Positions 4,993 to 61,498 of a stretch of 64,000 nt of DNA are shown here, in pieces. The stretch covers positions 29,638 to 93,637 of IMG/VR virus record IMGVR_UViG_3300022932_000014. One strand, written 5' to 3'. This DNA comes from a virus. Both the position numbers and the translations under genes were made by a program. Position 1 is the first letter of the stretch; each line of letters begins with the position of its first letter. The notes beneath the pieces were generated by a model. It was not told the origin of the DNA and did no database searches. It saw only the letters and a list, made by a program, of their open reading frames with translations.

Positions 4993-7251
4993 TTATTTTG
5001 CAAATGCTTGTACTACAGGCAATCCAGCTGCACTAGCTAATTGTGCTAAAAGTGTCTCTACTGCGGTTTGACGACCAACTTCAACAATAATATTAAGATT
5101 TGTTTTAATTGAAGAATGCGGTAACAATTTGTAATAGAACTGAGGTCTAATTGTAATTGTATATTGAATATACTGTGCTAAACCTCTAAGTCTTGACTCT
5201 TGCCCCCATAACCATTTACCGTAGTTATTACCTACAAATCTCTCAACACCATCTAAGTTATATCTGGCCTGATCTTCTCTGTTATATAAATAACCCCCTA
5301 ATGCTTCTGGATCTGCGGCGATTGACAACACTTTTACTTTGAAAGGAAATTTACTTGATTCCCAGTTCTCTGCAATATATGTTGCTTGACCACCTGCTAC
5401 AGAGATACGAGTTGAAGTTGCATAAAATGGCATATCATCTCTATATTCTTCTGATCCTGACATTGTGAAAGGTTTACCTCTGAAACGAATACCCATTTTT
5501 GCTGCTGCATCGTACTCATCAATAGCTGTCTCCCAAACATTTAAACCATAGTTTTTAGGCGCTTCTGCTGTAAACAATCCTCTGAATTCGTCTGAACACT
5601 CTTCGCAAATAATGTTTGTTGGTACATTAGTTCTATAAGTAGTTTGACATAAAGAAGAAATTTGTGCTCCTGATCCTACCGCTGGTGCAACTGTACCTGT
5701 TAATGTACCTGTAGCTGTTGCGATAGAGAATCCTGGATATGTTGCTGATGGCGCTACTAAAATAATTGTTGCTCCACTAGAAGTGATTGTTCCTCCTGTT
5801 GCTAATTCAATAGCGGCTTTATTAGCTGTAATAAAGTTAGTAGCTGTAGTAGCTAAATCTGTAGCAAATGTAGATGTATAAGGGATACCACCAATTGTAA
5901 TTGTAGCTGTTCCTGAAGTACCTGTTAGTGTTGCTGTTCTTGACAAGTTAACTGTATCAATTGCAATTGTTAAATCAGGATAAGCTTCTTGTAAATCTGC
6001 TAAAATATTTCCGCCACACTCGTCATCTGCAATTGTGATTGTATATGCTTTTGTAGTTGACTGACAAATATCTCCTAATACCCATGCAGTAGAAACTGTA
6101 GTTGCATTAGAACAAACTGCTTGAACTTCTCCTGCCAAATCAAATACCGCTGTTGAAGCTGGTGCAGAAATAGCTCTGAATGTTGAAATTTGTGCGTCTG
6201 TTAACTCTGCTGTTACCACTACTGTGTATGTTCCTACACCCGCAACTGAACCACCAATTTTAACTGCTGTTCCTGTTACAAATCCTGGTAAATCATCAAT
6301 TGTAGTTACTAAACTTGCTCCATCATCTTCTAAAGCAATAGAGTAAACAAATCCTGCTACAATTTCTGTATATCCTGCTGGGCAAGTATCACATCCTTTA
6401 ATTTTAGAAGCTAAACTTGTTGTATAAGCAGGAATTGATGTCCCCACTGGAGCTTGTAAAGTATAAACTGTTTGATTACCTGAAACTTCATCCGTTCTTA
6501 CAACTTTATAAAGTGGGTATTGTGCTTGTACTCTGGCTAAGGCAGTTGAATCTCCATTATCAAATAAAGTTAAATTGTAATATTGATAATCAACTGTATC
6601 TTCTAATGCTCCGTTTAAGCTATTAACAACTAATGCGTCAACATAGTCTGTTACAGGTACACCACCCAATAATTTTGTAGCGTTAAATTCAGCCACAGCT
6701 TTTTCAACTAGTTCTTGCATTGTAACCACACCATTGGCGCAATCAATACATACTCCGTCATCGTCAAGATAAGGATATTGTAGGTCTAATCTAATAGTTG
6801 TTTCTCCTTCTTTATAACCTAAATTATACATTGGATCTCCGCAAAGAGTAATGTCAATTCCTGTAGAAGTTCTTTCTCCTACTATAATTTCTGTTCCTGG
6901 TTTTCCATTGTATCCGATAATAAAATCATCTACTTCAATACCTGTTCTGTTTGGAACTTCTACCCTAATATCCTCAATATCAGCAATTCTGAAAGTCTGG
7001 CTCTCATATGCTTTATTTGTAGTGTATTGAGACACTGGTTTATCGAACGCCCCTACAAGCAAATCGAATGATTTATCTTTTGATTGTCCTGTGAAAGTTG
7101 AATAAACTTTTCTTCCGTTTTGTGTAAGTTCTTTATTATCGTTACTAACAATGGCTAGTACGCCATTAGTTACATTTAAAGAACCACCTGTTGTTAGAGT
7201 CTTACCATCTAGGATGAAAAAGTCTCTCTCTAATGCTCCCGCTGTTGCCAT
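4993..7251 (-). CDS. Conserved crAss-like capsid-module structural protein (auxiliary capsid / stabilisation type)
   Basis: 752 aa, T/A/G-rich beta composition. Third gene downstream of the MCP, matching crAss-like gene order. Confidence 0.6.
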   Translation of the reverse strand: MATAGALERDFFILDGKTLTTGGSLNVTNGVLAIVSNDNKELTQNGRKVYSTFTGQSKDKSFDLLVGAFDKPVSQYTTNKAYESQTFRIADIEDIRVEVPNRTGIEVDDFIIGYNGKPGTEIIVGERTSTGIDITLCGDPMYNLGYKEGETTIRLDLQYPYLDDDGVCIDCANGVVTMQELVEKAVAEFNATKLLGGVPVTDYVDALVVNSLNGALEDTVDYQYYNLTLFDNGDSTALARVQAQYPLYKVVRTDEVSGNQTVYTLQAPVGTSIPAYTTSLASKIKGCDTCPAGYTEIVAGFVYSIALEDDGASLVTTIDDLPGFVTGTAVKIGGSVAGVGTYTVVVTAELTDAQISTFRAISAPASTAVFDLAGEVQAVCSNATTVSTAWVLGDICQSTTKAYTITIADDECGGNILADLQEAYPDLTIAIDTVNLSRTATLTGTSGTATITIGGIPYTSTFATDLATTATNFITANKAAIELATGGTITSSGATIILVAPSATYPGFSIATATGTLTGTVAPAVGSGAQISSLCQTTYRTNVPTNIICEECSDEFRGLFTAEAPKNYGLNVWETAIDEYDAAAKMGIRFRGKPFTMSGSEEYRDDMPFYATSTRISVAGGQATYIAENWESSKFPFKVKVLSIAADPEALGGYLYNREDQARYNLDGVERFVGNNYGKWLWGQESRLRGLAQYIQYTITIRPQFYYKLLPHSSIKTNLNIIVEVGRQTAVETLLAQLASAAGLPVVQAFAK

Positions 7252-8938: not shown

Positions 8939-8970
8939 CAAATATAGTAATATGTTTTTATTACAGCAAA
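8939..8970 (-). promoter_or_regulatory. Bacteroidota sigma70-type promoter (TTTG-N20-TATATTTG)
   Basis: The reverse complement reads TTTG, 20 nt, TATATTTG, about 25 nt before the 323-aa gene. Confidence 0.75.
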
Positions 8971-10298
8971 TTACTTAATTTTAGAGTACCGCAATCGTAT
9001 ATCTTATTATAACCCTTAATTTCTTTTTTAGTTCTCACTTGACCCTTAGTAAAAAAGTAAGCAGGTGGTGTCTGTTCAATCACTTTAAATCCTAAAGCTT
9101 TTTCACGTTTTCCATAACTCCATCTCAAATCAACTGTAGTTGTATACTCACCTTTAAAGTTTTCTAGAAGTTTCTCAAACCCCTCATCAACAATAGTGTT
9201 AAGTTTGTTTACAAAAAGTAATTCTTTGTTATTTTCTGAAATTAAAGAAACTAATTCATTATTATAGTAAAGCCCCACAATTACATCCGCTTCTACAAAA
9301 TCGTCAATATAATTAATTTCCAGAAAGTCTGCATATTCTTCTTGATCAATTGTTTTTATTTCACAATCCTTAACTGATAATTTATTTTCTGTCTTGTCTA
9401 TAGCCTCTAATAATAGAGATTTTACTTTATCTTTACTATACATCCACTCGTCTTCAAATATATGAATTAAATGAATATCTTTATCTATACACTGAGTTGT
9501 CTTATTTAAATGGTAATCACTATGTTGAAATTTATCAGAATGATAGTATACACCATTATATTCTAGGGCTACTCTTAAGTCAGGAATAAATATGTCTAAT
9601 TCAGCTTTATTATTTAAAATATCCCTATTTGAATATTCGAATTCTAAATATGAGTGTAAAAATCTTCTCAATTCTAATTCAGCGCTAGACGTTATAACAT
9701 TACATTGGTTACAGCCAGAACCCTTGAAGTGGTTAGAAGGTATGACTTGGAAATCTCCATGTATTTTGCAAGTAACTGTAATTGTATGGTTATCGCTTAT
9801 ATATTTTGTATTATCATATGTATATGTGTCAGAATGTCTGTCTCTTATTCTTTTCCAAAATTCTTCTATTGGTAAACGTAATTTATCAGACCTTTTATGT
9901 ATTCCGCATTTTTTACATCCTCTTCCTTCTAAATGAGTATCAAACCTAATCGGGAATTTTCCATGTTTTTTACATATAACTTGATATATATTCCTCTGTG
10001 TTGTAAAGTCTATTACTGATGAATAGTCATATAAATCACCATGTTTTAAAACAGCTTTTTGTATACACTCCTCTTTAGATAATATCCTATCAACTGATCT
10101 TAATTTTATGCCGCAATCTGGGCATCCTTGACCTGATAAATGAGTATCATTTCGTTTATAAAAATCCTTATTGTGTATAGGACAAGTTATAGTCATTTTA
10201 CCCTGACTTTTGGTCAAGTATATAGTCTTACAATAATCATATTTATTATTGTGTACCTTGTTCGCCTTTTCTATGTACTCTTTTAATCTGTTATCCAT
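8961..10298 (-). CDS. Free-standing homing endonuclease (repeated Zn-ribbon/DUF723-like units plus PD-(D/E)XK/Vsr-like nuclease)
   Basis: Three repeats of K..H...YDY...ITC..HG.F....HL.G.GC..C, then ELDIFIPDLRVALEYNGVYYH and IHIFEDEW. Confidence 0.8.
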   Translation of the reverse strand: MDNRLKEYIEKANKVHNNKYDYCKTIYLTKSQGKMTITCPIHNKDFYKRNDTHLSGQGCPDCGIKLRSVDRILSKEECIQKAVLKHGDLYDYSSVIDFTTQRNIYQVICKKHGKFPIRFDTHLEGRGCKKCGIHKRSDKLRLPIEEFWKRIRDRHSDTYTYDNTKYISDNHTITVTCKIHGDFQVIPSNHFKGSGCNQCNVITSSAELELRRFLHSYLEFEYSNRDILNNKAELDIFIPDLRVALEYNGVYYHSDKFQHSDYHLNKTTQCIDKDIHLIHIFEDEWMYSKDKVKSLLLEAIDKTENKLSVKDCEIKTIDQEEYADFLEINYIDDFVEADVIVGLYYNNELVSLISENNKELLFVNKLNTIVDEGFEKLLENFKGEYTTTVDLRWSYGKREKALGFKVIEQTPPAYFFTKGQVRTKKEIKGYNKIYDCGTLKLSNLL

Positions 10299-13692: not shown

Positions 13693-16482
13693 TTAATTCT
13701 TGTTTATACTTGCGATTACTAAATTATTTCTATCGCGCTCCTTCTTTTGGGCTAATTCTTGTACACGAAGCTGAAACTCTTTATCATCTTGTTCTCGCTT
13801 AGCATTCATATCCTCCTGCTTAATTTGAAGATTCTGACTCTTTAATTGTAGGTCGGCATTTGCATAATCGTTATCCAGGGCTTGTTGTGTAACTCTATCT
13901 AATCTATCATACAAACTTGAATCTGCGTTTTGATTGATTGACATCTTACCATAACTATCAATTTGCTTGACTTCGATCGCGGTCTGATTACGGGAATCTT
14001 GTATTTTAGTTTCTTGCTCGTATTTAAGTTGTAATGCTTTATCAGCTGCTTGAATTTGTTTATCGGCCAACTCTTGTTCGTGAGCTTGTTGTTGTTGAGT
14101 TGCTTTTTGGGCGTCGATACGATTTTGTTTCGCGTGAGCCATTATAGCTGTCATTGAATTAGAAGTTACAATTTCTGCCATATCTAATATATCCGCACCC
14201 GCCGTATTGTTCTGTAAAAGGGCTACTCTTAATGTCTCCAAAGTTTTCTTAGAGTTACTATCAGTAGCTAACTTGATCCCAAATTCTCTGGCCTGAAAAA
14301 AAGGATCCGATAGTTCTATAAAAGCTTTCTCCCCATCAGACTTAGTATATAAGAATGAGTAATCTTTATTGTTTTTTTGGCAATATTGTGCTACAGTTAA
14401 ATGTAATAAACATGCTCTTTTATCTGCTTCTGCTTGTACTGCGAAAAGGCCTTCTGTTTGTGCGTATGAGGCTGTATTTCCTTGTTTTATTCCTTCCGCG
14501 GTAGAATACTGATCTGGTGTTCCAATTCTTTGCGGAGTAATACCTATTTGCTCTAATGCCTGTAATTTAAATTGAACTGCTAAATTCATTCTATTATTAA
14601 TCATTCCTGTATAATCAATAGATTGTGTAGCAAAAGCATTCATTGCAGGTTGACCTCCTTCTAAGTTTTGGCGAGAAGTATCTACAGGAACAATTCCAAT
14701 GTCCTGAATTAAATCGTACATTTGCTCTAAAGCCTGTCTTGTATTTCCTGAACCTTTATATTCTGAAGGTAAGTATTTAATATCAAATAGAAAGAATGTT
14801 CCTAATTCTTTTTCAAGAAGTGAATATATTTGATTTAAAACGATGTTGTGTTTGATTATATATGGACGTAGCTTTTTAGCTATTGAGTCTCCTATATATC
14901 CTGCCACTGGTATTTTAGCATCATATATATTACTTCCACCATCCATTGTTCCTTTGATTTGGAATGGTAGTGCTTTTCCACCGATATATAAATCTTTGTC
15001 TAAATAACTGTTGTGTGATTTTGCTTTTACACCCCACCTAATTTCAGGTATCCAGGTGTATGCAATTGTATTGGGTTCCATTCTTAGTTCAGCCTCTTCT
15101 AAAGAGATTTTTCTAAGCGTGGTGATTTCATTTTCTTTTAAAAATTCTGGCAGTAAATCATCTGTTGTGAAAACCTGATCCATGTACCCGTCTTCATTGA
15201 TATAATTTAAAATACCAACTCTTTTGTATGAACGCCAATATGATTCTGTTACTTGCAGTGTGTCTGATCTTAAATCAATGTCTGAACGTAATTCGCTCAT
15301 TGTATTCTGACTTAAAAATCCTCCGCCTCTTGCTAATGGTGAATACCAAGATGGTACTACTTTTTGTTGTCCCTCTACTACAACTGTAGATTCTCCCATA
15401 GGAACTCCAAATGTATCTTGAAATTGAAGTCCTAATTCGTAATCATGAAATCCTGCAAATGGTAATTGTTGTACTTGGCCGAAGTTATTTTGTATTACTT
15501 GATTGACAGACGCTCCTCCACTATATCCTCCACTTTGATTTTGGTTGTAATAACCCATCAATCTTTTTTGAGTGTCTTCATCTATTCTGTCGCCGAATCT
15601 ATTTAAGAATTTAGATGGTGACATTTGAGTTAAGAAAGATACGTATTCTGCATCTTGTGGATATTCTATATCTAAATCTTCTGAAAATGATACTTGACAT
15701 GGGTGCCATCTTTCTGGTTTATAGTAGTCGTATCCTATATGATAATGTCTAAACCATCTTCCTGTTAGAAGTCTATCAACCATCTCTTGACGGCTCATTT
15801 TCTCCATTCCAAAACGGTCTTGGTCTAATTCATATGTTTTTTCCGCCCACTCAGTAGCTGTTGTTTTCCAGTTTTTAAACATTGCCTCCTGAATTGCTTC
15901 TGGCGGAACAAGTTGATCTTTTTGCTGTTGTAGTTCCTGAGCATAAGCTTGCATTTCCTGTTCGGATTGAAACTGTCTGTCTTCATTTACTACTATTCCT
16001 CTTGCAAGTAATTTACGTTCTAATTCTAGATTAAAATTCTTTTGAGTGAATTCCCATAATTTGCTGTCTTGATCTCTAGTAAAATCATTTTGTGAAACGG
16101 GATCTGTATTATCTATTCTAAAGGCGGCCTTACTTGTAATCCAATCTGATTCAATTTGGTTGCATATAATTCCTAAGAAGTCATAGTGTTTAGCATGAAC
16201 TGGGTAATCTGTTTCTCCACGCAGTCTTATAATTTCTTTTGAGAAATCTTCTAGGCCGTAGTCAGAGTATATAAGCTCACCATTTATCATAGAAAAATAA
16301 TCTTGAAACTGAATATTACGCGAATATTGTTTTACTGCGATCTGTTCAAGTCTATCCATGCAAAGCTGAATCCACTTGTCGTTTTTCTGACTTTCTAATA
16401 ATGTCTGTGTAGGTAAGGCAGAAGAAAAGTCTCCGCCTTGGCCAAAGTTACTCAGGAAGCTGGTCGTGAATTGATCACTCAT
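13693..16482 (-). CDS. Portal protein (crAss-like)
   Basis: 929 aa, directly downstream of the terminase, with Q-rich C-terminal helical tail (QQQQAHEQELADKQIQA). Confidence 0.75.
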   Translation of the reverse strand: MSDQFTTSFLSNFGQGGDFSSALPTQTLLESQKNDKWIQLCMDRLEQIAVKQYSRNIQFQDYFSMINGELIYSDYGLEDFSKEIIRLRGETDYPVHAKHYDFLGIICNQIESDWITSKAAFRIDNTDPVSQNDFTRDQDSKLWEFTQKNFNLELERKLLARGIVVNEDRQFQSEQEMQAYAQELQQQKDQLVPPEAIQEAMFKNWKTTATEWAEKTYELDQDRFGMEKMSRQEMVDRLLTGRWFRHYHIGYDYYKPERWHPCQVSFSEDLDIEYPQDAEYVSFLTQMSPSKFLNRFGDRIDEDTQKRLMGYYNQNQSGGYSGGASVNQVIQNNFGQVQQLPFAGFHDYELGLQFQDTFGVPMGESTVVVEGQQKVVPSWYSPLARGGGFLSQNTMSELRSDIDLRSDTLQVTESYWRSYKRVGILNYINEDGYMDQVFTTDDLLPEFLKENEITTLRKISLEEAELRMEPNTIAYTWIPEIRWGVKAKSHNSYLDKDLYIGGKALPFQIKGTMDGGSNIYDAKIPVAGYIGDSIAKKLRPYIIKHNIVLNQIYSLLEKELGTFFLFDIKYLPSEYKGSGNTRQALEQMYDLIQDIGIVPVDTSRQNLEGGQPAMNAFATQSIDYTGMINNRMNLAVQFKLQALEQIGITPQRIGTPDQYSTAEGIKQGNTASYAQTEGLFAVQAEADKRACLLHLTVAQYCQKNNKDYSFLYTKSDGEKAFIELSDPFFQAREFGIKLATDSNSKKTLETLRVALLQNNTAGADILDMAEIVTSNSMTAIMAHAKQNRIDAQKATQQQQAHEQELADKQIQAADKALQLKYEQETKIQDSRNQTAIEVKQIDSYGKMSINQNADSSLYDRLDRVTQQALDNDYANADLQLKSQNLQIKQEDMNAKREQDDKEFQLRVQELAQKKERDRNNLVIASINKN

Positions 16483-20747: not shown

Positions 20748-21065
20748 TTAGCGCCATTTTGGAGTTAAATCTATTTCTTCTAGTCCACAAACTGCCATTT
20801 TAACCCTGGTCTTAGCTTTGATACTACAACCGCAAGCACTACAAACTGCCTTAGTTATTTGAATAAACATTAAAAACTTTTCTCTGAAAGTCAACTCTTT
20901 CTTATTTCTAGTATTGTATTCACAATTTTTACAGATTTCTCTTCTTTCTTTACACCAAGTCTCCTTACTATTTTTGTAAGCAATTAATCTAGAATTAAGG
21001 ATCATCTTCCAAGTTGACCATTTTAGAAATTTATTTTTGACCATTTGCTGTAAATATTGATGCAC
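20748..21065 (-). CDS. Small Cys-rich (Zn-binding) protein
   Basis: CKNC...CSACGC...C pattern. Confidence 0.55.
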   Translation of the reverse strand: MHQYLQQMVKNKFLKWSTWKMILNSRLIAYKNSKETWCKERREICKNCEYNTRNKKELTFREKFLMFIQITKAVCSACGCSIKAKTRVKMAVCGLEEIDLTPKWR

Positions 21066-22698
21066 TGTTATAAGTGATTGCTCCTAGAGTTAGGAATGTT
21101 CCTGAAATAGATACTGCATTTTGAAGTGCTAATCTTTCTACTTTTGTTGGATCAATAATCCCTCTTTCAAATAAATCTGTAAAGTCATTATTTTCTAAAT
21201 CTATTCCATAACCGTATTCTTGTTTTTCTATCCTTTCTAAAAATTTATTACTATTTAAAGTCCATAATAGAAATTTACTTTTATATTTTATTCCTGCGTT
21301 TTCTAAAATTTGAGTAAATGGGTATTCAAGTGATCTTATCAAAACTTCAACTCCTTTTTGTTCATCTTTATTTCTTACTTCTATTTTAGCCGATTTAAGA
21401 GCATTTGCTATATTCAAATAGGTTACACCTCCACCAGCTACATATCCTTCTTCTAAACAAGCTTTAACTGCGCATAGGGCATCTTCTACTCTGTCTGTCT
21501 TTTCTCTTTTTTCTGGTGCGGAATAGCCACCTACTTTAATTACGGCAACCCCTTTGGTTAATTTAGAATATCTTTCTTTTACATATTCTGTTTCTTTTTT
21601 CCCTCCAGTGATGTTTTTAATTTGTTGTTTTACAATTTCTGTTCTTACTTTGATTTCTTCTTGATTTCCTTTTCCACCAATTAAAACTGACTTATTAGCA
21701 TCTGAAATCACTTTATCGATATGTCCTAGCCCTTCTAATGTAACATTATCTAAATCATCTCCTAAGTCTTCACTATAAACTTTTGCGCCTATTAGAGAGG
21801 CTATATCTTTAAGTGTTTCATTTTTTCTTGCGCCGAAAGAAGGTGATCTTAAATTCATCATTTTAAAGCCTTGATAACTAAATTCTAAAATCTCTTTTTG
21901 AACATGGCCAGAAATATTATCACAAATAATTAAAAGGCCTTCAAATACTCCTAATTCTCCGTTTTCATCTTTAGTAGTCGATAATTCAATAGCCTTATTC
22001 AACTGTCTTTTATCTTTTAGGTGTCCTTGGTAAATTAAAACATTCATGTCTTCAAAAACAGCTTCAAACTTTTCTCGGTCATTGATAAATTCCGCCAAAG
22101 AAAAAGGTACATCTAATTCATATCCTAAAGATGATTCTACAGAGGAAGTAATACTATCTGTTTCTTCTACCTTTATTGTTCCACTTTTACCTACTTTTCT
22201 GAAAGCTTCGACAACTAAATCAGATATTTCTTCATCTCCATTTGTAGAAACATTTGCTATGCTTTTAAGTGTTTTTAAATTACTTGAGTTTCTAGATAAA
22301 GTTTTTAAATGTTTTAAAGAGAAATCTAAAGCTAAATCTAGTCCTCTTTTTAATGATATTGCATTTACTTTTCCAGTGTTTAAAACAAAATCTGCTTCAT
22401 GAACAATAGCCTGTGCAAGTACTACACTAGAAGTGGTTCCGTCTCCAGCTCCCTCATTTGTTTGATTTGAAACTTGTTTTACTAGAGATGCTCCTGCGTT
22501 AATTATAGGATTTTCAGATTCAATTTCTTTAGATACAGATACTCCGTCTTTTGTTAATATAGGTAAAAGTAAATCTCTTACACACATTACATTTAACCCT
22601 TGTTTACCAAGAGTCACTTTAACTCCATTTGCAACTAAATCTACTCCTTCTTTTAATAACTTTCTGGCTTCTTGGCCGTAAACTACTTTATTCTCCAA
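21031..22698 (-). CDS. groEL: Group I chaperonin GroEL (phage-encoded)
   Basis: GVKVTLG, TKDGVSVSKEI, AGDGTTS, DALCAVKA..EEGYVAGGGV, GIIDPTKV. No GGM tail. Confidence 0.95.
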   Translation of the reverse strand: MENKVVYGQEARKLLKEGVDLVANGVKVTLGKQGLNVMCVRDLLLPILTKDGVSVSKEIESENPIINAGASLVKQVSNQTNEGAGDGTTSSVVLAQAIVHEADFVLNTGKVNAISLKRGLDLALDFSLKHLKTLSRNSSNLKTLKSIANVSTNGDEEISDLVVEAFRKVGKSGTIKVEETDSITSSVESSLGYELDVPFSLAEFINDREKFEAVFEDMNVLIYQGHLKDKRQLNKAIELSTTKDENGELGVFEGLLIICDNISGHVQKEILEFSYQGFKMMNLRSPSFGARKNETLKDIASLIGAKVYSEDLGDDLDNVTLEGLGHIDKVISDANKSVLIGGKGNQEEIKVRTEIVKQQIKNITGGKKETEYVKERYSKLTKGVAVIKVGGYSAPEKREKTDRVEDALCAVKACLEEGYVAGGGVTYLNIANALKSAKIEVRNKDEQKGVEVLIRSLEYPFTQILENAGIKYKSKFLLWTLNSNKFLERIEKQEYGYGIDLENNDFTDLFERGIIDPTKVERLALQNAVSISGTFLTLGAITYNSASIFTANGQK

Positions 22699-29622: not shown

Positions 29623-30024
29623 ATGGCCGTAAAAAAAGTTAAAAATCCAAAAGTACCTAGAACTAGAAATAATTTCACTTTAACAGAAGCAGGTTTTTGG
29701 GGAATGATTAGAAGTTGTTTGAGAAATGCTTCCAGATGGTGGAAACCAATTGCTCAGTGTAAATTAAATTCTAGAAGGGCTTATAAGGGAGTTAATAAAT
29801 CACAAAAGTGGGAATATCTTTGCAATCATTGCGGAGATTGGTTTATGGAAAAAGAGGTGCAAATAGATCACATCATTGACGCAGGAACACTAACAAGAGC
29901 AGAAGATTTATCAGGATTTGTAGAAAGACTTTTTTGTGAAGTTGATGGTTTTCAATGTCTATGCAAACCATGTCATCAAATAAAAACTAATTCGGTAAGG
30001 TCGGCGAAAAAAGAAAATAAATAA
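29623..30024 (+). CDS. HNH endonuclease
   Basis: CNHC...VQIDHII...N-equivalent...CLCKPCHQIKT. Confidence 0.8.
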   Translation: MAVKKVKNPKVPRTRNNFTLTEAGFWGMIRSCLRNASRWWKPIAQCKLNSRRAYKGVNKSQKWEYLCNHCGDWFMEKEVQIDHIIDAGTLTRAEDLSGFVERLFCEVDGFQCLCKPCHQIKTNSVRSAKKENK

Positions 30025-45500: not shown

Positions 45501-48500
45501 GAAGCAATAGCAATGCTCAAAGATATTCAAGAAGATTTACTTATTATTAATGTAAGTCAGTGAATATGAGGCTCTTAAGGTGAGGACAACCCCACCCACA
45601 AACATTTATTCCTTCTAAAATACTAAAAATATGACCGCTCGGTCAGGCTTCGAACTTATATAGGAGAATACTTAAATTTAAACCTTAACAATTTTTAACA
45701 TGAAAACAAACTTAGACAAATTCAAAGATATAATATACAAACAAGCTATAAATAACCCTTTATTTGATTTTAGTCTATTAGGTGGAGAGTTTAAAGGATT
45801 TCATAATAAAAGGGAAGAGGCTTTAATTAAATTAGAACATTATATATCTAATATTGATATAAGAGTAATTGAATACTTAGCACCTGAGATAAAAGAGAGA
45901 TTTCCTAAATGGTATAAACAAAGACAGTTTTATATTGATTATAATAAAAATGGTGAGTTAGATATAATTAGGATGGTTAATTTGTAACTGTTCTTTTCTC
46001 CTTTTCCAATTCTTTTTTGCGGCGATTTTGCCCTCACAAATAAAACTTACTAAAATGAAAACTAAAAGCAAACAACAGATATTATATTGGGGTGTTAAAC
46101 CTCAGATACAAAACAGACCAAATAAACTTTCTAAAGGAATGGCTTTTACTAACGAAAGAAGAGCAAGAAGAAATAATAAATCTATATTTTATAGTGCGAT
46201 AATTAGCAATAATAAGTGTTCTAAAGAATCGAGATCATTATCAGTTAGAGGTACATTAGATAAGTTAGCGAGTATTAACTCAGTTAGTAAGTATAACATT
46301 AAAAGATATAAGGCCGGTTTACCTCAACAAAGAAAAGCTAAAAACAGTTTTGCTTATTTAAAAGAGCTTGTTTTTTCTTAATTCTTTCCCCTCCAAAAAT
46401 ATTAAACAAAACACAGAACAAACAATTTAAAGCTATTTTTAGCTGATTTAAGACACTAAAACAATAATTTAATACTGTTAGACGCTTCAGATTAAAAAGG
46501 CGTGACACAAATGAGAACAATAAGAACAAAGGTTTATACTTTTAATGAGTTAAACAAAGAAGGACAAGAAAAAGCAATTGAATTAAATTCAGATATAAAT
46601 GTCGATCACGATTGGTGGATTTGGACGTATGAAGATGCAGAAACAGCAGGATTAAAATTGACAGGGTTTAATTTAGGATACAATCCAATAGCAAACGGAA
46701 AATTTATAGAAAGCTCTTACGATTGTGCAAATAAAATAATTAAAAATCACGGAGAAACTTGTGAGAGTTATAAATTAGCTGAGCAGTTTATAAAGGAATG
46801 GGGCGAAGCCATTATATTACATTCTGACGGAATACAAACGCATAGAGTAATGGAGGGTAAAGAATCTGATTTTGATTATTATATGGAAGATAGAGAAGAA
46901 CAGTTTTTAAAAGACATTCTTTATTATTATGCGGACTATTTACAAAAGGAATGTAATTATTTACAAAGTGAAGAAGCTATTAAAGAAACTCTTATTGCTA
47001 ATGAATATGAGTTTTTGTCTACAGGTAAAATGTTTTCTTAGTTTTTTATTCCCGCAAAAATAACCTTTAAATAATACAATTATGAACACAAAATATTTAG
47101 TTACAGTAGAATTTAGATTTACAAGCGTAAACAAAGATAAAACAGATAAGAACTATAATAATAAAACAATTACTATAGGTGTGTTTGATTCTTTTGATGA
47201 TGCGTGTAAAGAAGGAAATAAAAACCTTGAAATAATGGAGAGCCGTTTTAGTCTTCATAAATTCCCGCAAGGACATTTCGCACCAAAAGAAAGATTTAGT
47301 AAAAATGGAGGTTGTTTTAACAGCAGAAAGACTTTAATTACTAATTTAGCGTATCTAAAAACACCGTTTGAGTTTTATTTTAAGATAACAGATTTAAATT
47401 ATCAAAATATAGAGAGTTTTATAGATGATACATTAAGTTCTGTTAATGAATATAGAGAGTGGAGAGGTTAAATTATTATTCTTTTTTCTCCCGAAATTAT
47501 TAATCATTAGATCATATTATTATGAATACAGAAAACAACACATTATTAGCCGAGTTTATAGGTTTTGAAGTAATAAAAGAACAGGACTTCTTAAATTATA
47601 CAGCAGGACAAATGACAGATAAAACAATTATAGATAGTGCTTTAAAATATCATACTTCATGGGATTGGTTAATGAAAGTCGTAGACAAAATAGAATCTGT
47701 TAATGATAACGAATTTGTTGTTGAAATTTCAGACGCTATGTGTGAGATAACAGGTTTTGAAGAAAATGCAGATATGAAAATATATAAATGTGGTGGAGAT
47801 AAAAAAGATTCTGTTTATAATGCTTGTGTTGAATTTATCAAATGGTACAACGAACAAACAACTAAACATTAATACTTATGAAAACAATTGATATTAGATA
47901 CTGGAAAAAAGATTTTAGCGATGTACTACCATACAAACACAGCCAAACTTTTGAATACAGTAAACAAAAAGCCCTTGAAATAATTAATAATATTATTGAT
48001 TCTGGCTTAAATGTAAAAACATCAAATCACGCAGAAACTTTTGTTATTTTTATAGATCAAGGTAGATTTGTACAATTTTAATAATTTAGATTATGAAACC
48101 AATAAATAAAAAAAGAGGTAATTACGAGATTGTTAATTACTATCAGCACGATTTAAGTAATAATAGGTATATTATATTAGAAAACGGTTTTGATTGTATT
48201 GGAAATCATTTTTCTTTGAGAGAGGTTATTACTGTCTTTAAAAGCTTGTTTTAATTTCTTTTTCGCGCCAATTATGTGCAATAACATATAATTAAACACT
48301 AATTAACAATTTTAAATTTAAAAACATATAATTATGACTAGTAAGGAAGCAATATTCAGTAAATTAAAAACTTGTGAAGCTATTTTAAGAAAATGTGAGG
48401 GATACGGAACAAACGATTCAGAAATTACAATGGCGGTGTTTAAAGCTATAATAAGAGAAGTTTTAGAAGAAGCTAAAAACGAGTTAATAAATATAGACTA

Positions 48501-51500
48501 ATGACACTAGAACCACAACACAGAGAAGCTTTAATAACTGAGTTAAACAAAGCAAAAGAAGAATATATTTTAGGTAAGGACATCAACCAAAAGAATACAA
48601 CAGAAGACTATCAAAAATGGTCTGATATTAAATTGTTTCTTCTTTTAAAGAGAATAGAATTAATAGAAGAGAGTTTGATTAATAATGAGATTGATTTTTA
48701 ATTTATTTCTGTTTTTTATTCTTTTTTCCCGAAAATTTATTATATTTACACACTTAAAAATAGAAAGATATGAAAACACTTACTGTCAATAAAACAAATT
48801 TAATACACGATTTGAGCATATTTCCTAACTTTTCCAAAACAGGCAGTATTAAAGGAATGAAAAAACTTTACTACGGTGAAGATGCTTTGCTAATTAAAAG
48901 TGGTCGTTATATATACAAAGTTACAGAAGAAGTTTATAATTATTATTCTTAAAACAAAAACATTATGAAAACAGAAATAATTTCCAACGATTTAAGAGGT
49001 TTAGAAATTTACGCAAAACCTTTTGTATTTCAGGTAAGAGAAAATAAAAAAGAGTTTTATTACTCTGAGATAGGTATTTTAGTAAGTTGCAGATATTACC
49101 CTAAGACTGAGGACTATAGTAAAACATATAGAGGTAAGTTTGCAGTTAATGTTCAGTATGACTATAGAAGTGCAGACGATTTAAGTAAGTTTGGTTTTGT
49201 TAAAAATACTGGTACATACGGAATAGATTTATTTGCTAAAACTTTAGAAGAGGCGATGCAAATGACTTTAGATTTCATTGAAAGTGAGTTTACAAGTTAC
49301 AGAGCTTTTGGCGGAGAAAAATTAAAACAGAAAAATAAAGCAAGTATCAGAGAGGTTGCAAAAAGCCAGTCATTACATCATTTGGCAAGTTTTTCTAACT
49401 TATGGAGTGAAGATAATATTTATCTTACTATTGTGAAAAATGCGGGTGAATTTGATACTTTAATGAATTATAGAAAAGTTAATGAGAACAGGCACAACGC
49501 TGAATTAAAATATCAAAGCAAATTAAGTGCAAGATTTTCAAAAGATTTCGGAGTTAATATAAGAGAATGCGCCCCAACATTTACATTCAGATTAGGTAAT
49601 TTTCAAACTCTAACAGGACTAAATGCAAAAGAAGATCTAAATAAAAATCAGAAAAATACATTACAACACGCTTTAAAATATTACAGATAATGAAAACAGT
49701 TTATATTACTTTTCAATCAGGCAAAAAAGAACCTATAGTTTCTATGTTATCAGTAATAAATCATGGGCAAGTTCTAGAAGATGGGCGTATAAGATACTTA
49801 ACAAAAGATGGTATAAAAATACAAACTATAGAGGAGATAACTAATAATAATGTAAGTGTTGTTGAAAAATCAAAAATTGATATTAAAGAGAGCTTATATT
49901 ATTGGTACAGAAGACACCCAAACAATCTAGATAAACCACTGATAGAAGACGAAAATCTTGAAATGGGGGAAGATTATTTTGGTAACTCATGGAGGTACGG
50001 CTTAAAATTACTAGTAACACAGAAAGATATTAAATACAAATTAATCCTTGAATAATCATGAAACAAAATATTATATTATTTATAGCGGTATTTATTGCAA
50101 TAGGCTCTCTTTGTTATTTTGCTTTTATTTCGGGCGAAAAGAATAGAGACACAGAAATTTTAATGCTAAAAATACAAAACCAACTGTCTTTTAAATCTGG
50201 TCAAGAAAGTAAACAGAAAGAAATTGAAAATCGCGCAAAAAAGATAAATAAAGAGTGTTTTACAAACGCAGACATAGAAAAAATCATATTTAATGAAAAA
50301 CAATTATGAAAGAAATAGACATAGATACCTTAATAGAGTATCTGCAAGAAGAGAAGAAAAACGGCGGAAAAACAATTAAATACAAAGGAACAGTTTTATG
50401 CCCTGAAAACTTTAACTCAATAGTAATAACAACAGAAAAACAAATGTAATGGAAAGATATTATTATATTACAGGATATTGGAAAGACACAAACGAAAACT
50501 TTGAAGATTATATTGTAAAAGATGGAGATTTTACACAAGATCAAGAATTAAATGATGATGATGTATTTTTCTACGGTTTATCTGAGGATGATATTTTAAA
50601 TTGTATCGCTTTTGGATGGGGCACAGAATTAGAATTTATTATAACAGAATATAAAGAGTATTAGTTATGAAAATAGAAGTTAGCAAAAAAGATTTATATG
50701 TATCAATTATAATAGATCAAGGAGAAATAACAGGAAATTTAGAGGCTTATAATACAGGAAGATGTAAAGAATATTCATTTGAAGCAGATTGGTTTTCTTC
50801 TGATGAAGCCGAGGAATTTTATAATGAAAACTATAATGAGATAGAAGAACAAATACAAGCTAAACTATGAAAGATTTAACAACAGAAAATATATTAATTT
50901 GGTTTGAAGTTTATATATCAGGCGAAGAAGAGGGTACAGAAACAATTGCTTTATTCGATGAAGAACAACAAGCAAAAGATTATATTAAAGCTAATCCTGA
51001 AATGAATTTGGATTATGATAAATGGCAATATAACACTAAAACAAAAGAAAATGAAAAACTCTGATAGAAATTTAATGGTAATAAAAAACTTTATATTATT
51101 CCTATCTCATAGCGAAGAAGGAGACATTGACGCAGATATAGACTTAAACTTAACAGCTAATGATCTTTATAAACTTGCAGAAGATTATATTGAAGAAGAC
51201 CATGTTGACGGGAGAGACAATGAAGAAGACTAATTTTTGGCAAAACAAATAAAAACAGTTAAAATGACCATAACTAAAACAAAAACCAACAGTGTAACAT
51301 ACTACGAGTGTCAACCAATAGACGGAATATGTTTATTTGCATTCACTAAAAGAAGATTACTTATAGACTTATGTAAAGTTTATGGAATCAATTTGTTTAA
51401 CCCTTTAAATTTGAATTAAGATGAAGAAAGAAATTAATATCAACTTAGGATTTCCTTATACCATTTTTGCAGTTTGTACAGCAATGATAGGATATACAAT

Positions 51501-57669: not shown

Positions 57670-58290
57670 ATGAAGAAAATAATATTACATTTATGCGCTG
57701 ATTTAGGAAGTGATTCTTTATTTTATCAATTAGATTCCGACTATGAAGTTAGAATGATTGGCGAAGAAATAGGAGTTGAAAATTACAAAGGTTCTAATGA
57801 TATTTACGGTGTAATAGCTAACCCCGTTTGCAAAGAGCTCTCAACCGCCAATGGATTTCACAAAGAAAATGATGTGGAAAAAGGTATGATATTAGTGAAT
57901 CATTGTTTGAGAATAATATCAGAATGTAAAAATTTAAAATTCTGGCAATTGGAAAATCCTGCTAATGGCCGATTAAAAGAATTCTTAGGAAAACCAAAAT
58001 TAGTTTATCAGCCTTGGGAATACGGAAGCCCTTGGACAAAGAAAACAGCTCTATGGGGAGAATTTAATATCCCTGATAAAACTTATAGTAAGTGGGAAGA
58101 TGTACCTAAGAACGATAAAATATACGTAAGACCAGGTAGACCAAAACCAGCATTGGCTTTTCTTCACAAATCAGCTGTAAATTTGATTCCTGAGTTTGAG
58201 TGGGCGAAAGATAAGATTAAATGTGACGCAGACATAAGAAGTATGTGCTCACAAGGATTTGCAAAAGCATTTTATGAATTTAATAAATAG
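57670..58290 (+). CDS. Second orphan DNA cytosine-C5 methyltransferase-like protein
   Basis: IILHLCADLGS, ANPVCKELS (motif IV), QLENP (motif VI), KKTALWG, RSMCSQGFAKAFY. Confidence 0.7.
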   Translation: MKKIILHLCADLGSDSLFYQLDSDYEVRMIGEEIGVENYKGSNDIYGVIANPVCKELSTANGFHKENDVEKGMILVNHCLRIISECKNLKFWQLENPANGRLKEFLGKPKLVYQPWEYGSPWTKKTALWGEFNIPDKTYSKWEDVPKNDKIYVRPGRPKPALAFLHKSAVNLIPEFEWAKDKIKCDADIRSMCSQGFAKAFYEFNK

Positions 58291-58799: not shown

Positions 58800-59195
58800 A
58801 TGATTATGAAAAAAGGAATAATAGAATTTTCAGAAGAGTTGTTGGAAGAAGTTTTAGAAGGAACAAGTGCCTCAAACATTGTAGATAAATTAGAGAAATA
58901 CTTTAACCCTGTAAAAGACTCACATAAAAAACTAAGAGTATTACACTATCCACAAATACCATGTAAACCGTTTACAGTAGAAGTAAAAGACGAAGAACAA
59001 GCTTATTTAGTAAGTGAAGCTTTGGCCAATCAACACCTATTCCTTTTTGAAAATAACTTTATTCCCGATTATGCAAATATTATTTTAGTTCAGATGTTTG
59101 ATGATGGTGAATGGATTGATTATTATAATTATGAGCATGATATGGAATTTGATGAATATGCACAGAATTTTTTAAATTTAGCGGAAAAAGAATAA
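58800..59195 (+). CDS. P22 gp17-like protein (exclusion-override family)
   Basis: KLRVLHYPQIPCKPFTVEV...EALANQHLFLFENNFIPDYAN resembles, from memory, P22 gp17 KLRVWHIPQVPMKPFIVEV...DALADYD.FQYDNNIKPDYCN. Confidence 0.65.
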   Translation: MIMKKGIIEFSEELLEEVLEGTSASNIVDKLEKYFNPVKDSHKKLRVLHYPQIPCKPFTVEVKDEEQAYLVSEALANQHLFLFENNFIPDYANIILVQMFDDGEWIDYYNYEHDMEFDEYAQNFLNLAEKE

Positions 59196-59262: not shown

Positions 59263-59403
59263 ATGAAAGTAATATACATGGGGACAACTCTCGGACTAAT
59301 ACACGAAATACATCCAGAAACAGCTCAACAAATATTAGCACAAGGAGAAGTGAAAGAAACAGAAGATAATATTAAATATGTTGTAATAAACGAAACATTA
59401 TGA
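59263..59403 (+). CDS. 46-aa ORF translationally coupled to DGR target 1 (below ORF-track cutoff)
   Basis: MKVIYMGTTLGLIHEIHPETAQQILAQGEVKETEDNIKYVVINETL. Its TGA overlaps the target ATG (ATGA). Confidence 0.55.
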   Translation: MKVIYMGTTLGLIHEIHPETAQQILAQGEVKETEDNIKYVVINETL

Positions 59404-59963
59404 AAACAGAAATAAAAAGATCAGAACTACAAAAGATTTGGGAAATTTCTTGTAATACTTGGAAAACAAAAATAAAAGATTATGGGAGTAAAGATCCATT
59501 CAGTGAAACAATAAAATTCACAGAGAAAGAAATTAATGAAATGATTAAGGCTTGTACAGATGTTCAATTGCCTGTGGTTAAAGAGATATTTGATGTTCGT
59601 GATAGCTGGGAATATATTAAAAGTTTTGAAGACGTAATAAAATATTTAGGAGAAGAAGACGAATATGTAATCGAATATAAAAAACTGATAAAAGCTAATA
59701 TAACTTCTAAATCTTTATCATTTCAAATGCTTATTTGTTGGGTTAAATCTCTTAATGAAAGACATGTATTAGATTGGTCAGACTCTAAGGAGTATAAATA
59801 CTGCATTTGGTGGTATATGAATCCTTTTCGTGTCGTCGGCGTGTGCCATGGCTGCGAGAGTTCGCGTGTCCCTTCCGCTCTTTGCTTCAAGAAACGTGAA
59901 ATTGCAATTTATGCCCACCAAAACAAAGAGTTTTTTAGTTTATATGAAAATTATATGAAATAG
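59400..59963 (+). CDS. DGR target protein 1 (187 aa, VR near C-terminus)
   Basis: VR encodes PFRVVGVCHGCESSRVPS. No signal peptide or TM. Confidence 0.9.
   Translation: MKTEIKRSELQKIWEISCNTWKTKIKDYGSKDPFSETIKFTEKEINEMIKACTDVQLPVVKEIFDVRDSWEYIKSFEDVIKYLGEEDEYVIEYKKLIKANITSKSLSFQMLICWVKSLNERHVLDWSDSKEYKYCIWWYMNPFRVVGVCHGCESSRVPSALCFKKREIAIYAHQNKEFFSLYENYMK
59823..59876 (+). repeat. Variable repeat VR1
   Basis: Against TR 60000-60053: 15 mismatches, all at TR adenines, and 36/36 non-A positions identical. Confidence 0.95.
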
Positions 59964-59999
59964 AAAAATAGGATGTATTTATCAATTGGTCATTCCTCT

Positions 60000-60053
60000 C
60001 CTTTTCGTATCAACAACGTGAACAATAACTACGAGAATTCGAATGTCCCATCC
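60000..60053 (+). repeat. Template repeat (TR), continuing into an IMH*-like 3' segment to about 60066
   Basis: cct ttt cgt atc aac aac gtg aac aat aac tac gag aat tcg aat gtc cca tcc. Intergenic, 7 AAY codons, 18 adenines. Confidence 0.95.
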
Positions 60054-60168
60054 ACCCTACTGCTTTTTAAATAATATAGAATATATCCCTACCAACAAGG
60101 TAAAAAATAAAACTAACGCTCGGCTCCCTAGTAAATAGATTGAACAGGAGCCTCTTGAAGCAAAATAA

Positions 60169-61101
60169 ATGAAGAGAAAAGGATTTTTATACGAGAGTAT
60201 AATTGAAATAAACAATTTAAAATTAGCAGATAAAAATGCCAGATTAGGTAAATTAAAACAATATGGTGTTCAAAAACATATATTAAGAGAAGATGAGAAT
60301 CTAAAAGAGTTGAATGAATTACTACAACATAGGAAATACAGAACATCTAATTATAGTAAATTTGAAATATTTGAGCCAAAGCACAGAGTAATAGCAAGAT
60401 TACCTTATTATCCAGATCGTATCATGCACTGGGCAATACTGTTAAAAACCAAAGAAATTTTTGTAAATAGTTTTATAAGTAATACGTACAGTGGTATTAA
60501 AGGTAGAGGTGTACATAAAGCCTCTTATGATTTAAGAAAATCCTTGCAAGACGAAGAATGTAATAAATACTGTCTGAAGTTGGATGTGAAAAAGTTCTAT
60601 GAAAATATAGATCATAATATATTAAAAGGACTTTTAAGAAAAAAGTTTAAGGATAGAGAATTGTTAACAGTCTTTGATGAAATAATAGATTCTAATGGGG
60701 TTGGGTTGCCTTTAGGATCGTTAATTAGTCAATATTTTGCAAATTTTTACTTATGTTACTTGGATCACTATATAAAAGAAAATTTAAATGTTAAGCATTA
60801 TTTTAGGTATATGGATGACCTTGTGATTTTATCGAATAACAAAAAGGAATTGCATTATATTTTATCTAAAATAAGATTATATCTAAAGACACTAGGACTT
60901 GAAATAAAAAATACATACCAAGTATTTCCGGTTGAAAAAAGAGGTATCGATTTTGTAGGTTATGTCCACAGAAAGAATTACATATTAATAAGAAAAAGTA
61001 TTAAAGAGAATTATAAAAAGAGTAAAAACAAAAAAGATTGGAATAGTTGGTTAATTCATTCCAATTCTGTAAATTTAAAAAACAAATATGAAAACAATTA
61101 A
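60169..61101 (+). CDS. Reverse transcriptase, DGR clade
   Basis: EPKHRVI..LPYYPDRIMHWAI, LKLDVKKFY, GLPLGSLISQ (DGR [LIV]GxxxSQ signature), YFRYMDD, GIDFVGY. Confidence 0.95.
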   Translation: MKRKGFLYESIIEINNLKLADKNARLGKLKQYGVQKHILREDENLKELNELLQHRKYRTSNYSKFEIFEPKHRVIARLPYYPDRIMHWAILLKTKEIFVNSFISNTYSGIKGRGVHKASYDLRKSLQDEECNKYCLKLDVKKFYENIDHNILKGLLRKKFKDRELLTVFDEIIDSNGVGLPLGSLISQYFANFYLCYLDHYIKENLNVKHYFRYMDDLVILSNNKKELHYILSKIRLYLKTLGLEIKNTYQVFPVEKRGIDFVGYVHRKNYILIRKSIKENYKKSKNKKDWNSWLIHSNSVNLKNKYENN

Positions 61102-61498
61102 CATTAATGGCTCAGAGTATACTGTAGAACAGTTGAGTAAAATTTTAGAAGAAGCTAAGAAAAAATCCCCAATGGATGAAGTTTATAAATACCATAACAC
61201 AACAGAGGATCAATTTGAAAAAGACTATTTTAATATTCCCTTGCATTTAAAGTATTATCAAAAAGAAGTAATGATAGTTGCTTTTTATAATAAAGGTTGG
61301 AAACCAAATATGAAAGATAAAAACGAGCGTAAATATTATAATTGGTACTATAATGATCCTTTTCGTTTCCACAGCGTGTTCGATCTCTACGTTTATTCGG
61401 ATGTCCCGTCCGCTCTTTTGCTTCAAAAAGAAGAGTACGGAAAAGAAATAGCTGAGAAATTTAAAAAAGAAATAGAGCAATCAAGATTAACAATGTAA
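61088..61498 (+). CDS. DGR target protein 2 (136 aa, VR near C-terminus)
   Basis: VR encodes PFRFHSVFDLYVYSDVPS. Overlaps the RT stop. The C-terminal domain is homologous to that of target 1. Confidence 0.9.
   Translation: MKTININGSEYTVEQLSKILEEAKKKSPMDEVYKYHNTTEDQFEKDYFNIPLHLKYYQKEVMIVAFYNKGWKPNMKDKNERKYYNWYYNDPFRFHSVFDLYVYSDVPSALLLQKEEYGKEIAEKFKKEIEQSRLTM
61358..61411 (+). repeat. Variable repeat VR2
   Basis: Against TR: 13 mismatches, 12 at TR adenines and one G-to-T (gag to gtt). Confidence 0.95.

Follow-up and report, generated by a model that had tools for sequence, protein, structure and literature searches.

The 64,000-nucleotide stretch of viral DNA analysed here (the window; positions 29,638 to 93,637 of IMG/VR record IMGVR_UViG_3300022932_000014) carries a compact cassette with the components of a diversity-generating retroelement (DGR), along with two target genes (Table 1). 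A first target gene (T1), a non-coding template repeat (TR), a reverse transcriptase (RT) gene and a second target gene (T2) follow one another in this order, the start of T2 overlapping the RT stop region by 14 nt, and each target contains one variable repeat (VR1 in T1, VR2 in T2). The complete virus record, that of a Bacteroidota phage, comprises 143,127 bp, and its TerL is 49.5% identical to those of the 145-kb Cellulophaga phages phi17:2 and phi4:1.

The TR aligns without gaps to both VRs over 55 nt, and the differences are concentrated at template adenines. Comparing VR1 (59823-59876) with the TR (60000-60053) over 54 nt that include 18 adenines, all 15 mismatches fall at TR adenines; for VR2 (61358-61411), 12 of 13 do so, the remaining one being a G>T difference at TR position 60035. 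Fisher tests of adenine versus non-adenine positions over the 55 nt give p = 7e-11 for VR1 and p = 5e-7 for VR2. Read in the target frame, the TR corresponds to SSPFR-I-NN-V-NNN-Y-E-N-S-N-VPS, with seven AAY codons and ten variable codons, and most of its 18 adenines lie in AAY codons. This allows 4^18 DNA variants and about 1.1e10 protein variants, while a stop codon is unreachable, and such codon usage is the classical DGR codon design. Both VRs are GC islands (62% in VR1 and 49% in VR2, in a window of 30%). On the 3' side of the last variable site, both VRs read GCTCTTT and the TR reads ACCCTAC, with two C>T differences common to both VRs. This divergence fits a putative boundary between an initiation of mutagenic homing site (IMH) and its template counterpart (IMH*), without a GC-rich 14-bp element of the BPP-1 type. 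DNA hairpins or cruciforms 3' of the VRs were no better than those of shuffled sequence (z = -0.25 and -0.94), and the same was true of the fold of the TR-RT spacer as a whole (z = -1.4); a GGCTCC...GGAGCC hairpin lies within this spacer at 60122-60152, just 5' of the RT start. A search of the complete record in which every TR adenine was replaced by N returned these three copies and no fourth. Therefore, no VR is present in the tail genes, tailspike region included.

Table 1 Positions of the cassette features in the window and of related genes in other genomes
Feature	Position	Strand	Description
T1 target gene	59400-59963	+	187 aa; N-terminal helical module of ~65 aa; variable domain at residues 99-183
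VR1 (variable repeat in T1)	59822-59876	+	T1 residues ~141-159; variable codons 145-147, 149-154, 156
IMH-like 3' boundary after VR1	~59877-59884	+	
TR (template repeat)	59999-60053	+	55 nt; non-coding; within the 205-nt T1-RT gap
TR-specific bases (IMH*-like) after TR	~60054-60061	+	
DGR reverse transcriptase	60169-61101	+	310 aa; RVT_1, phrog_1423, motifs
T2 target gene	61088-61498	+	136 aa; variable domain at residues 48-131
VR2 (variable repeat in T2)	61357-61411	+	T2 residues ~90-108; variable codons 94-96, 98-103, 105
Copies of the ~98-aa open reading frame	L020:4150-4446, L021:5184-5483, L028:2590-2889, L032:6994-7290, L046:2993-3289, L047:6778-7074, L064:8107-8403		
Family members in crAss-like phages	NC_055890.1 (cr56_1) 5070-5477; NC_055891.1 (cr60_1) ~14160-14504; NC_055892.1 (cr109_1) ~1913-2257		

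The RT is encoded by an intact single open reading frame (ORF) with catalytic motifs. LGSLISQ (60712-60732) and YMDD (60808-60819) represent the DGR-type signatures (I/L)GxxxSQ of motif 4 and YxDD, respectively, and the protein matches the profiles RVT_1 (2e-18) and phrog_1423 (1e-95). By tblastn, the closest RTs in phage records are the DGR RTs of crAss-like phages, with 45-52% identity. A gene for the accessory protein Avd was not found: a search of the 143-kb genome for PF05635 at E ≤ 1 gave no match, the space between T1 and the TR accommodates no ORF, and relatives do not conserve a 46-aa ORF that lies upstream of T1. Many but not all DGRs have Avd, and a missing Avd does not exclude membership. 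The preliminary description of this locus, drawn from the window alone, had reported the geometry and mismatch counts of the three repeats, the number and codon context of the template adenines with the resulting DNA diversity, and an RT with LGxxxSQ and YMDD between two targets, and all of these hold. It had also seen no VR in the tailspike by eye, which agrees with the wild-card search of the whole genome.

The order T1-TR-RT-T2 is kept in five related phage contigs of 138-156 kb (L004, L005 and L007-L009), and intact cassettes are present in six of six genomes of the clade. Within each of the five relatives, the local TR differs from each VR by 10-15 A-site and 0-2 other mismatches, and the TR sequence itself has diverged between their subclades. 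Between the window and L004 and L005, by comparison, the TR is identical at 55 of 55 positions. VR1 differs from its counterparts in these two contigs at 8/18 and 12/18 A-sites, respectively, and at 0/37 other sites, and the remaining T1 coding DNA is ~11% different. Metagenomes also contain 18 protein homologues of T1 and 48 of T2, and either alignment shows good conservation apart from a single hypervariable stretch that coincides exactly with the VR. Since the VR changes at A-sites only while the TR stays constant among close relatives, the element has been at work since these genomes diverged; this is the adenine-specific variation among relatives by which the preliminary description had proposed to recognise an active element. 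The comparisons therefore identify the cassette as a genuine, active and compact two-target DGR.

T1 and T2 have the C-terminal variable domain in common (hhalign 99.5%, E = 2e-22, 84 columns), and both targets have 27 codons between the VR and the stop. T1 and T2 are paralogues within one very large unnamed family of small proteins (110-190 aa). A profile of the ~85-aa domain, searched against 1.84 billion representative proteins, retrieved 2,967 representatives at 50% identity with E ≤ 1e-3, and 1,079 with E ≤ 1e-10. These are mostly proteins of 110-165 aa in which the domain is C-terminal, some with two domains in tandem, and their consensus reads ..KTFEDAC..LG...AY.KL..I..ALNEGW.PDW.N..E.KYYPWF...GF(R/S)[variable]S.VGSRLCFKS.ELA.YA..F..YK.F. 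Neither T1 nor T2 belongs to a Pfam, NCBIfam or PADLOC family; the sole PHROGs match of the targets is a weak one to phrog_11581 (function unknown), and no structural PHROG was matched. A tblastn search of 50,697 phage records with T1 and T2 gave no match, and the same search with P0067, a more typical family member, reached LoVEphage, BT-TP2 and crAss-like records. No hydrophobic segment indicative of a transmembrane (TM) region or signal peptide occurs in T1 or T2, and 208 of the 213 family members checked likewise lack one (present in 5/213). The N-terminal part of T1 (residues 1-65, window 59400-59600; ..ELQKIWEISC..WK.KI....EINEMIKACT..QLPVVKEIF) recurs at residues ~290-353 of P0087. As this module stands at the N-terminus of T1 and at the C-terminus of the 353-aa two-domain P0087, it behaves as a separate mobile module.

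Family genes usually lie beside a DGR RT. Among 44 IMG/VR loci chosen by a peptide pattern of the domain, with no RT criterion, a DGR-type RT lies within ~1 kb in 38. The 33 non-redundant loci contain 59 family ORFs, and in most of these loci the VR of each family gene matches a TR just 5' of the RT with 4-10 A-site mismatches and no others. A typical layout consists of a ~150-aa family gene, a ~125-aa family gene, the TR, the RT and a ~98-aa ORF. In bacterial assemblies, sampled as one genome per species, 142 of 153 pattern matches were relatives and 79 loci were kept. The relatives come nearly all from Bacteroidota, including Flavobacterium, Chryseobacterium, Elizabethkingia, Apibacter, Chitinophagaceae, Dyadobacter, Sphingobacteriales and Bacteroidales. 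An RT is found within 4 kb in 61/79 of the bacterial loci and at least two family genes in 64/79. Of the 124 bacterial family genes tested, 82 match a TR with three or more A-mismatches and no more than one mismatch of another kind. The VR of this class is short (45-55 nt), and the family genes usually occur as 2-3 tandem copies per cassette, each with an adenine-mutated VR of its own. Because multi-copy cassettes recur across IMG/VR and bacterial loci, the two-target arrangement is the norm for this class. What sets this phage clade apart is only the gene order, with a target on either side of the RT, an order shared by loci L011, L013, L014 and L034. In phages and prophages, most of them from Bacteroidota, the ~85-aa domain acts as a scaffold dedicated to DGRs.

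Two genes were considered as Avd analogues and rejected. The small ORF 3' of the RT in crAss cr7_1 is unrelated and has two in-frame TAG stops under table 11. The ~125-aa gene found at the avd position in typical cassettes belongs to the family and carries an A-mutated VR; it is therefore a target, which might conceivably have an extra accessory role. In the typical cassettes of smaller phages, the ~98-aa ORF overlaps the 3' end of the RT (Table 1), a position held by T2 in the window. The L064 copy of this ORF has no Pfam match at E ≤ 1, and it may be an unrecognised accessory protein of DGRs that lack Avd.

An AlphaFold2 model of T2, built with a 44-sequence alignment, reached a pLDDT of 93.3 and a pTM of 0.80. 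It starts with an N-terminal hairpin and helices, followed by a helix (52-68), a beta-hairpin (82-89/92-100), a loop and two helices (115-124 and 126-134). In this model the variable residues sit on the second hairpin strand and the following loop, and the two predicted helices (27 residues) lie 3' of the VR. The model of T1 has a pLDDT of 87 overall and 53-67 over the VR. The variable domain is thus predicted to be a small alpha/beta unit composed of a helix, a beta-hairpin and two C-terminal helices. Compared with solved structures, C-type lectins included, the T2 model found no match (Foldseek best E = 2.5). It did match uncharacterised Bacteroidota proteins in AlphaFold DB (E down to 9e-7), phage proteins in BFVD, several of them from crAss-like phages, and viral clusters in ESM Atlas (TM-score 0.68-0.73); no lead came from a feature search of the Atlas limited to clusters with names. 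PDB profile searches returned nothing lectin-like, and T1, T2 and nine other family members have no lectin, FGE-sulfatase, DUF1566, Lectin_C or DUF6273 Pfam match even at E ≤ 10. A C-type-lectin fold, the one on which all characterised DGR targets rely, was accordingly not detected in the predicted domain by the sequence-profile and structure searches run. Three large studies found this fold to be the systematic VR scaffold (PMC8144416; 10.1101/2024.11.15.621889; PMC12636319).

The genomic setting of the cassette is that of replication genes. Structural genes occupy 1-24 kb of the window on the minus strand, and the cassette lies at 59-61 kb on the plus strand, 35 kb inside a long plus-strand replication/early arm. 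It is flanked by a methyltransferase (MTase; 57670-58290) and a GP17-like gene (58800-59195) on one side and by an AAA ATPase and a PolB-type exonuclease on the other. We scanned 20 large genes adjoining family cassettes, ten in IMG/VR phages and ten in prophages of bacterial genomes. The IMG/VR neighbours comprise three primases, a DNA polymerase, an exonuclease, an FtsK-like/exonuclease protein, two SbcC-like nucleases and two DNA methyltransferases. Those in prophages comprise a ParB-like protein, two helicases (one a helicase-primase), two replication initiators, a methyltransferase, a Mu-type transposition protein, two proteins of unknown function and one without a match. Hence, 17 of the 20 are replication, recombination, partition, transposition or DNA-methylation genes, and none is a structural (virion) gene. 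One Mu-like phage carries the cassette where its early region ends. Around the conserved T1-TR-RT-T2 unit the genes are shuffled between relatives, and the part of the replication arm that holds the cassette is a variable accessory one. In L005 a further gene of 200 aa separates the RT from T2 (L005:7689-8291), in L004 the AAA ATPase is replaced by a 161-aa gene and a DUF723 gene (L004:8098-9157), and an RNase T-like exonuclease is found near the cassette in L007 (8118-8876) and L009.

These results extend the preliminary description, which had presented the element as a DGR that diversifies small non-tail proteins. Its view that the targets are not tail fibres is upheld by the lack of homology to virion families and the position among replication genes. 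Both targets are indeed free of signal or TM segments, and those of its listed neighbours that were looked at, one MTase and the GP17-like gene, are present. The shared C-terminal domain is real but slightly longer than the ~70 aa proposed. The two-target element is likewise real but not an isolated case, being one member of a very large class, and its non-structural setting also holds across the 33 non-redundant IMG/VR loci and the 79 loci of bacterial genomes.

The cassette can be compared with several known systems. It resembles the founding DGR of Bordetella phage BPP-1 (mtd-avd-TR-brt) in its RT with (I/L)GxxxSQ and YxDD, in a non-coding TR directly 5' of the RT, in adenine-specific mutagenesis with AAY codon design, and in the differing 3' boundaries of VR and TR (here putative IMH versus IMH*). 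It differs in having no Avd, in two targets that flank the RT rather than one upstream, and in a TR of 55 nt, compared with 134 bp in BPP-1. The targets of 136 and 187 aa, without a detectable C-type-lectin fold, are a further difference, as are the 27 codons that follow the VR and the location of the cassette among replication genes instead of the tail-fibre region. Small second targets are known from the gut Firmicutes phage proteins nd4_tgt2 and nd12_tgt2 (DUF6273; PMC10743442), which share with T1 and T2 the two-target phage DGR, the small stand-alone protein and a VR that forms a beta-hairpin. However, T1 and T2 lack a DUF6273 or lectin match, and the partner target in those phages is a tentaclin (lectin + Ig). 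The crAss-like DGRs (crAssphage LMMB, PMC7290462; crAssE-Sib, PMC11054128) have the closest RTs and also belong to Bacteroidota phages, and the cr7_1 cassette similarly has no annotated Avd, but the proteins that bear their VRs are tail or receptor-binding proteins, and for crAssE-Sib a lectin fold has been reported (PMC11054128). Genomes of crAss-like phages also contain family members at a distance from the RT, as well as distant structural look-alikes of the T2 domain. Three of these phages (cr56_1, cr60_1 and cr109_1), which have a DGR RT elsewhere in the genome, encode the family member ~50 kb from it, among small hypothetical genes (Table 1).

A published precedent for a phage DGR target that is non-structural comes from LoVEphage and Quimbyvirus. 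The 194-aa protein of Bacteroides phage LoVEphage (MW660583.1, 33613-34197) is a family member, and its gene lies among genes for a C5-MTase, DUF2400, PAPS reductase, a radical SAM enzyme, Dam MTases and RtcB. A TR of ~108 nt matches, with adenine-only differences, both an adjoining 444-aa ORF and this family member, whose gene lies on the opposite strand at a distance of 15 kb. A long insertion in the LoVEphage member holds a VR equal to that of the 444-aa target (QLVLWGG...GSRLA). The LoVEphage RT (48162-48984, minus strand; loci L058 and L059) is split over two reading frames, and yet both VRs differ from the TR by adenines only. In Quimbyvirus, the RT is frameshifted and a second target lies among a nuclease, methyltransferases and a tRNA ligase, in a 'defence island' (PMC8008677). 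The split LoVEphage RT would agree with the programmed-frameshift idea proposed for Quimbyvirus (PMC8008677). Likened by the published description, the LoVEphage member appears to match the second Quimbyvirus target; if the two do correspond, the 'defence-island' target in the literature is a member of the present family, which Benler et al. 2021 (PMC8008677) did not define, calling the target lectin-containing. The LoVEphage arrangement nevertheless differs from that of the window. Its family member is a remote second target with a long VR shared with the large target next to the TR, whereas in the window both targets belong to the family, the VR is 55 nt, no large or structural target exists and the RT is a single ORF.

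Given these observations, we consider it reasonably probable that the cassette is an active DGR acting on a non-lectin family scaffold, and that its targets are most likely early, intracellular hypervariable binders. In this model, the TR would be transcribed together with the RT, which would copy it with random misincorporation opposite template adenines. The resulting cDNA would then replace the homologous 55-nt VR in the two genes flanking the TR-RT unit, rewriting ten codons in each. The targets would be made early and act in the infected cell as soluble hypervariable hairpin-loop binding modules, whose ligand would vary between host strains and could be host defence proteins, host replication factors or components of competing phages. 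The placement among replication and early genes, together with the lack of virion neighbours, of a secretion signal and of a virion-attachment domain, makes it most likely that the targets are early and intracellular. An intracellular role is well supported by context, although unproven, and a counter-defence role is a guess. Several points weigh against this account. Five family members had no PADLOC match to defence families, an indirect result since PADLOC holds defence rather than anti-defence models, and, according to a 2026 survey, known anti-defence proteins are not among the targets of phage DGRs (10.64898/2026.03.05.709809). Without Avd, the details of retrohoming may differ from the BPP-1 model. 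The new fold rests on prediction, and the VR region of T1 is poorly modelled. The experimentally studied phage DGR targets are all receptor-binding proteins (PMC8144416, PMC12636319), and signal peptides are missing from virion proteins too, whose genes can lie away from the structural block.

The last two points feed into a different reading, in which T1 and T2 are associated with the virion as modules for host recognition or adhesion (tail-tip or capsid-decoration adaptors, for example), have genes that happen to lie outside the structural block, and are diversified for host-range switching as in BPP-1. The correlation of DGR carriage with host-range breadth (PMC12636319) would also suit it, as would the small stand-alone second targets that their authors read as Mtd-like (PMC10743442). 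We nonetheless regard a virion role as unlikely, since no structural gene was found among the large neighbours across unrelated phages and prophages, and the targets show no homology to any virion protein family. The cassettes themselves are situated deep in the replication arm here, in the early region of a Mu-like phage and, in LoVEphage, in an island of MTases and RtcB, and LoVEphage has a separate large target beside the TR in addition to its family member. A second question concerns classification rather than localisation, namely whether the variable domain is a drastically miniaturised C-type-lectin derivative, with the VR cut from ~36 to 18 codons, that prediction and fold search have missed. 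Roux et al. anticipated that the uncharacterised VR domains would turn out to be new variants of lectins (PMC8144416), and Benler et al. reported both Quimbyvirus targets with lectin domains (PMC8008677). The scaffold could indeed be a much-reduced lectin derivative, given that a single LoVEphage TR serves the 444-aa target and the family member with the same long VR, and that the family motif VGSRLCFKS is like the ...IGSRLA end of the 444-aa target's VR; both points also count against the non-lectin scaffold that we favour. Such a derivation seems to us rather improbable in view of the negative Pfam and PDB profile searches, and also of the two helices after the VR, as opposed to the C-terminal VR of described variable proteins (PMC8144416). 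Far less likely still is a decayed relic, whose A-biased differences would be fossils and whose RT or homing signals would be dead. The missing Avd gene and the one non-adenine mismatch in VR2 are compatible with decay, but the RT frame is intact with its catalytic motifs, the VRs have changed at A-sites alone beside an unchanged TR and divergent flanking genes, and all six clade genomes retain intact cassettes.

Building on the account of an active DGR with early, intracellular targets, we tentatively raise a bolder possibility, which at present we would doubt more than believe. The family would be a second, non-lectin DGR-tolerant scaffold, deployed intracellularly as an antibody-like repertoire (2-3 paralogues per phage, ~1e10 variants each) that binds strain-variable host proteins such as defence effectors or replication factors. 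In that case, DGRs would widen the host range of phages not only at adsorption but also once the DNA has entered the cell. Even the more general proposal of intracellular action, if true, implies that DGR adaptation covers post-entry steps of infection, and would change how DGR carriage is read in host-range studies. DGRs, multi-target DGRs, DGRs in Bacteroidota phages and non-structural or small second targets are already known (PMC8008677; PMC10743442). The literature searched contained no definition of the family, its short VR, multi-copy cassettes, non-lectin predicted fold or systematic placement in replication modules. What is unusual here is a scaffold without a detectable C-type-lectin fold and the absence of any structural target. 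The class may well be present, unnamed, among the target clusters of Roux et al., and most phage DGR targets are unannotated according to the 2026 survey (10.64898/2026.03.05.709809). One such unannotated target class is now concrete: an ~85-aa domain with ~3,000 sequence clusters, a VR of 45-55 nt in 2-3 copies, and replication/early placement in Bacteroidota phages. Family members are found in prophages of Flavobacterium, Chryseobacterium and Dyadobacter strains that can be cultured, which makes the question of their role testable. The small, well-predicted domain would also make an attractive minimal scaffold for DGR-based directed evolution.

Some further observations concern individual family members and the rest of the window. 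At L066, the two-domain member P0067 adjoins a 191-aa protein (L066:7295-7870) with an Acb2/Tad1 hairpin match (27.4 bits, cutoff 27). Upstream of P0067, a protein exceeding 2,900 aa bears an LPD38 polyvalent-protein domain (L066:1-5200), and no RT was found within 8 kb of P0067. One ESM Atlas look-alike cluster contains Tad2-like domains (TM-score 0.48). The Acb2/Tad1-hairpin neighbour, taken with the LPD38 protein, and the Tad2-like cluster are single weak hints at anti-defence, on which we do not build. Elsewhere in the window, an HNH/homing-endonuclease-like ORF is located inside the structural block (8961-10298), and a full GroEL-like chaperonin is encoded at 21031-22698 (phrog_5725, 1.8e-115).

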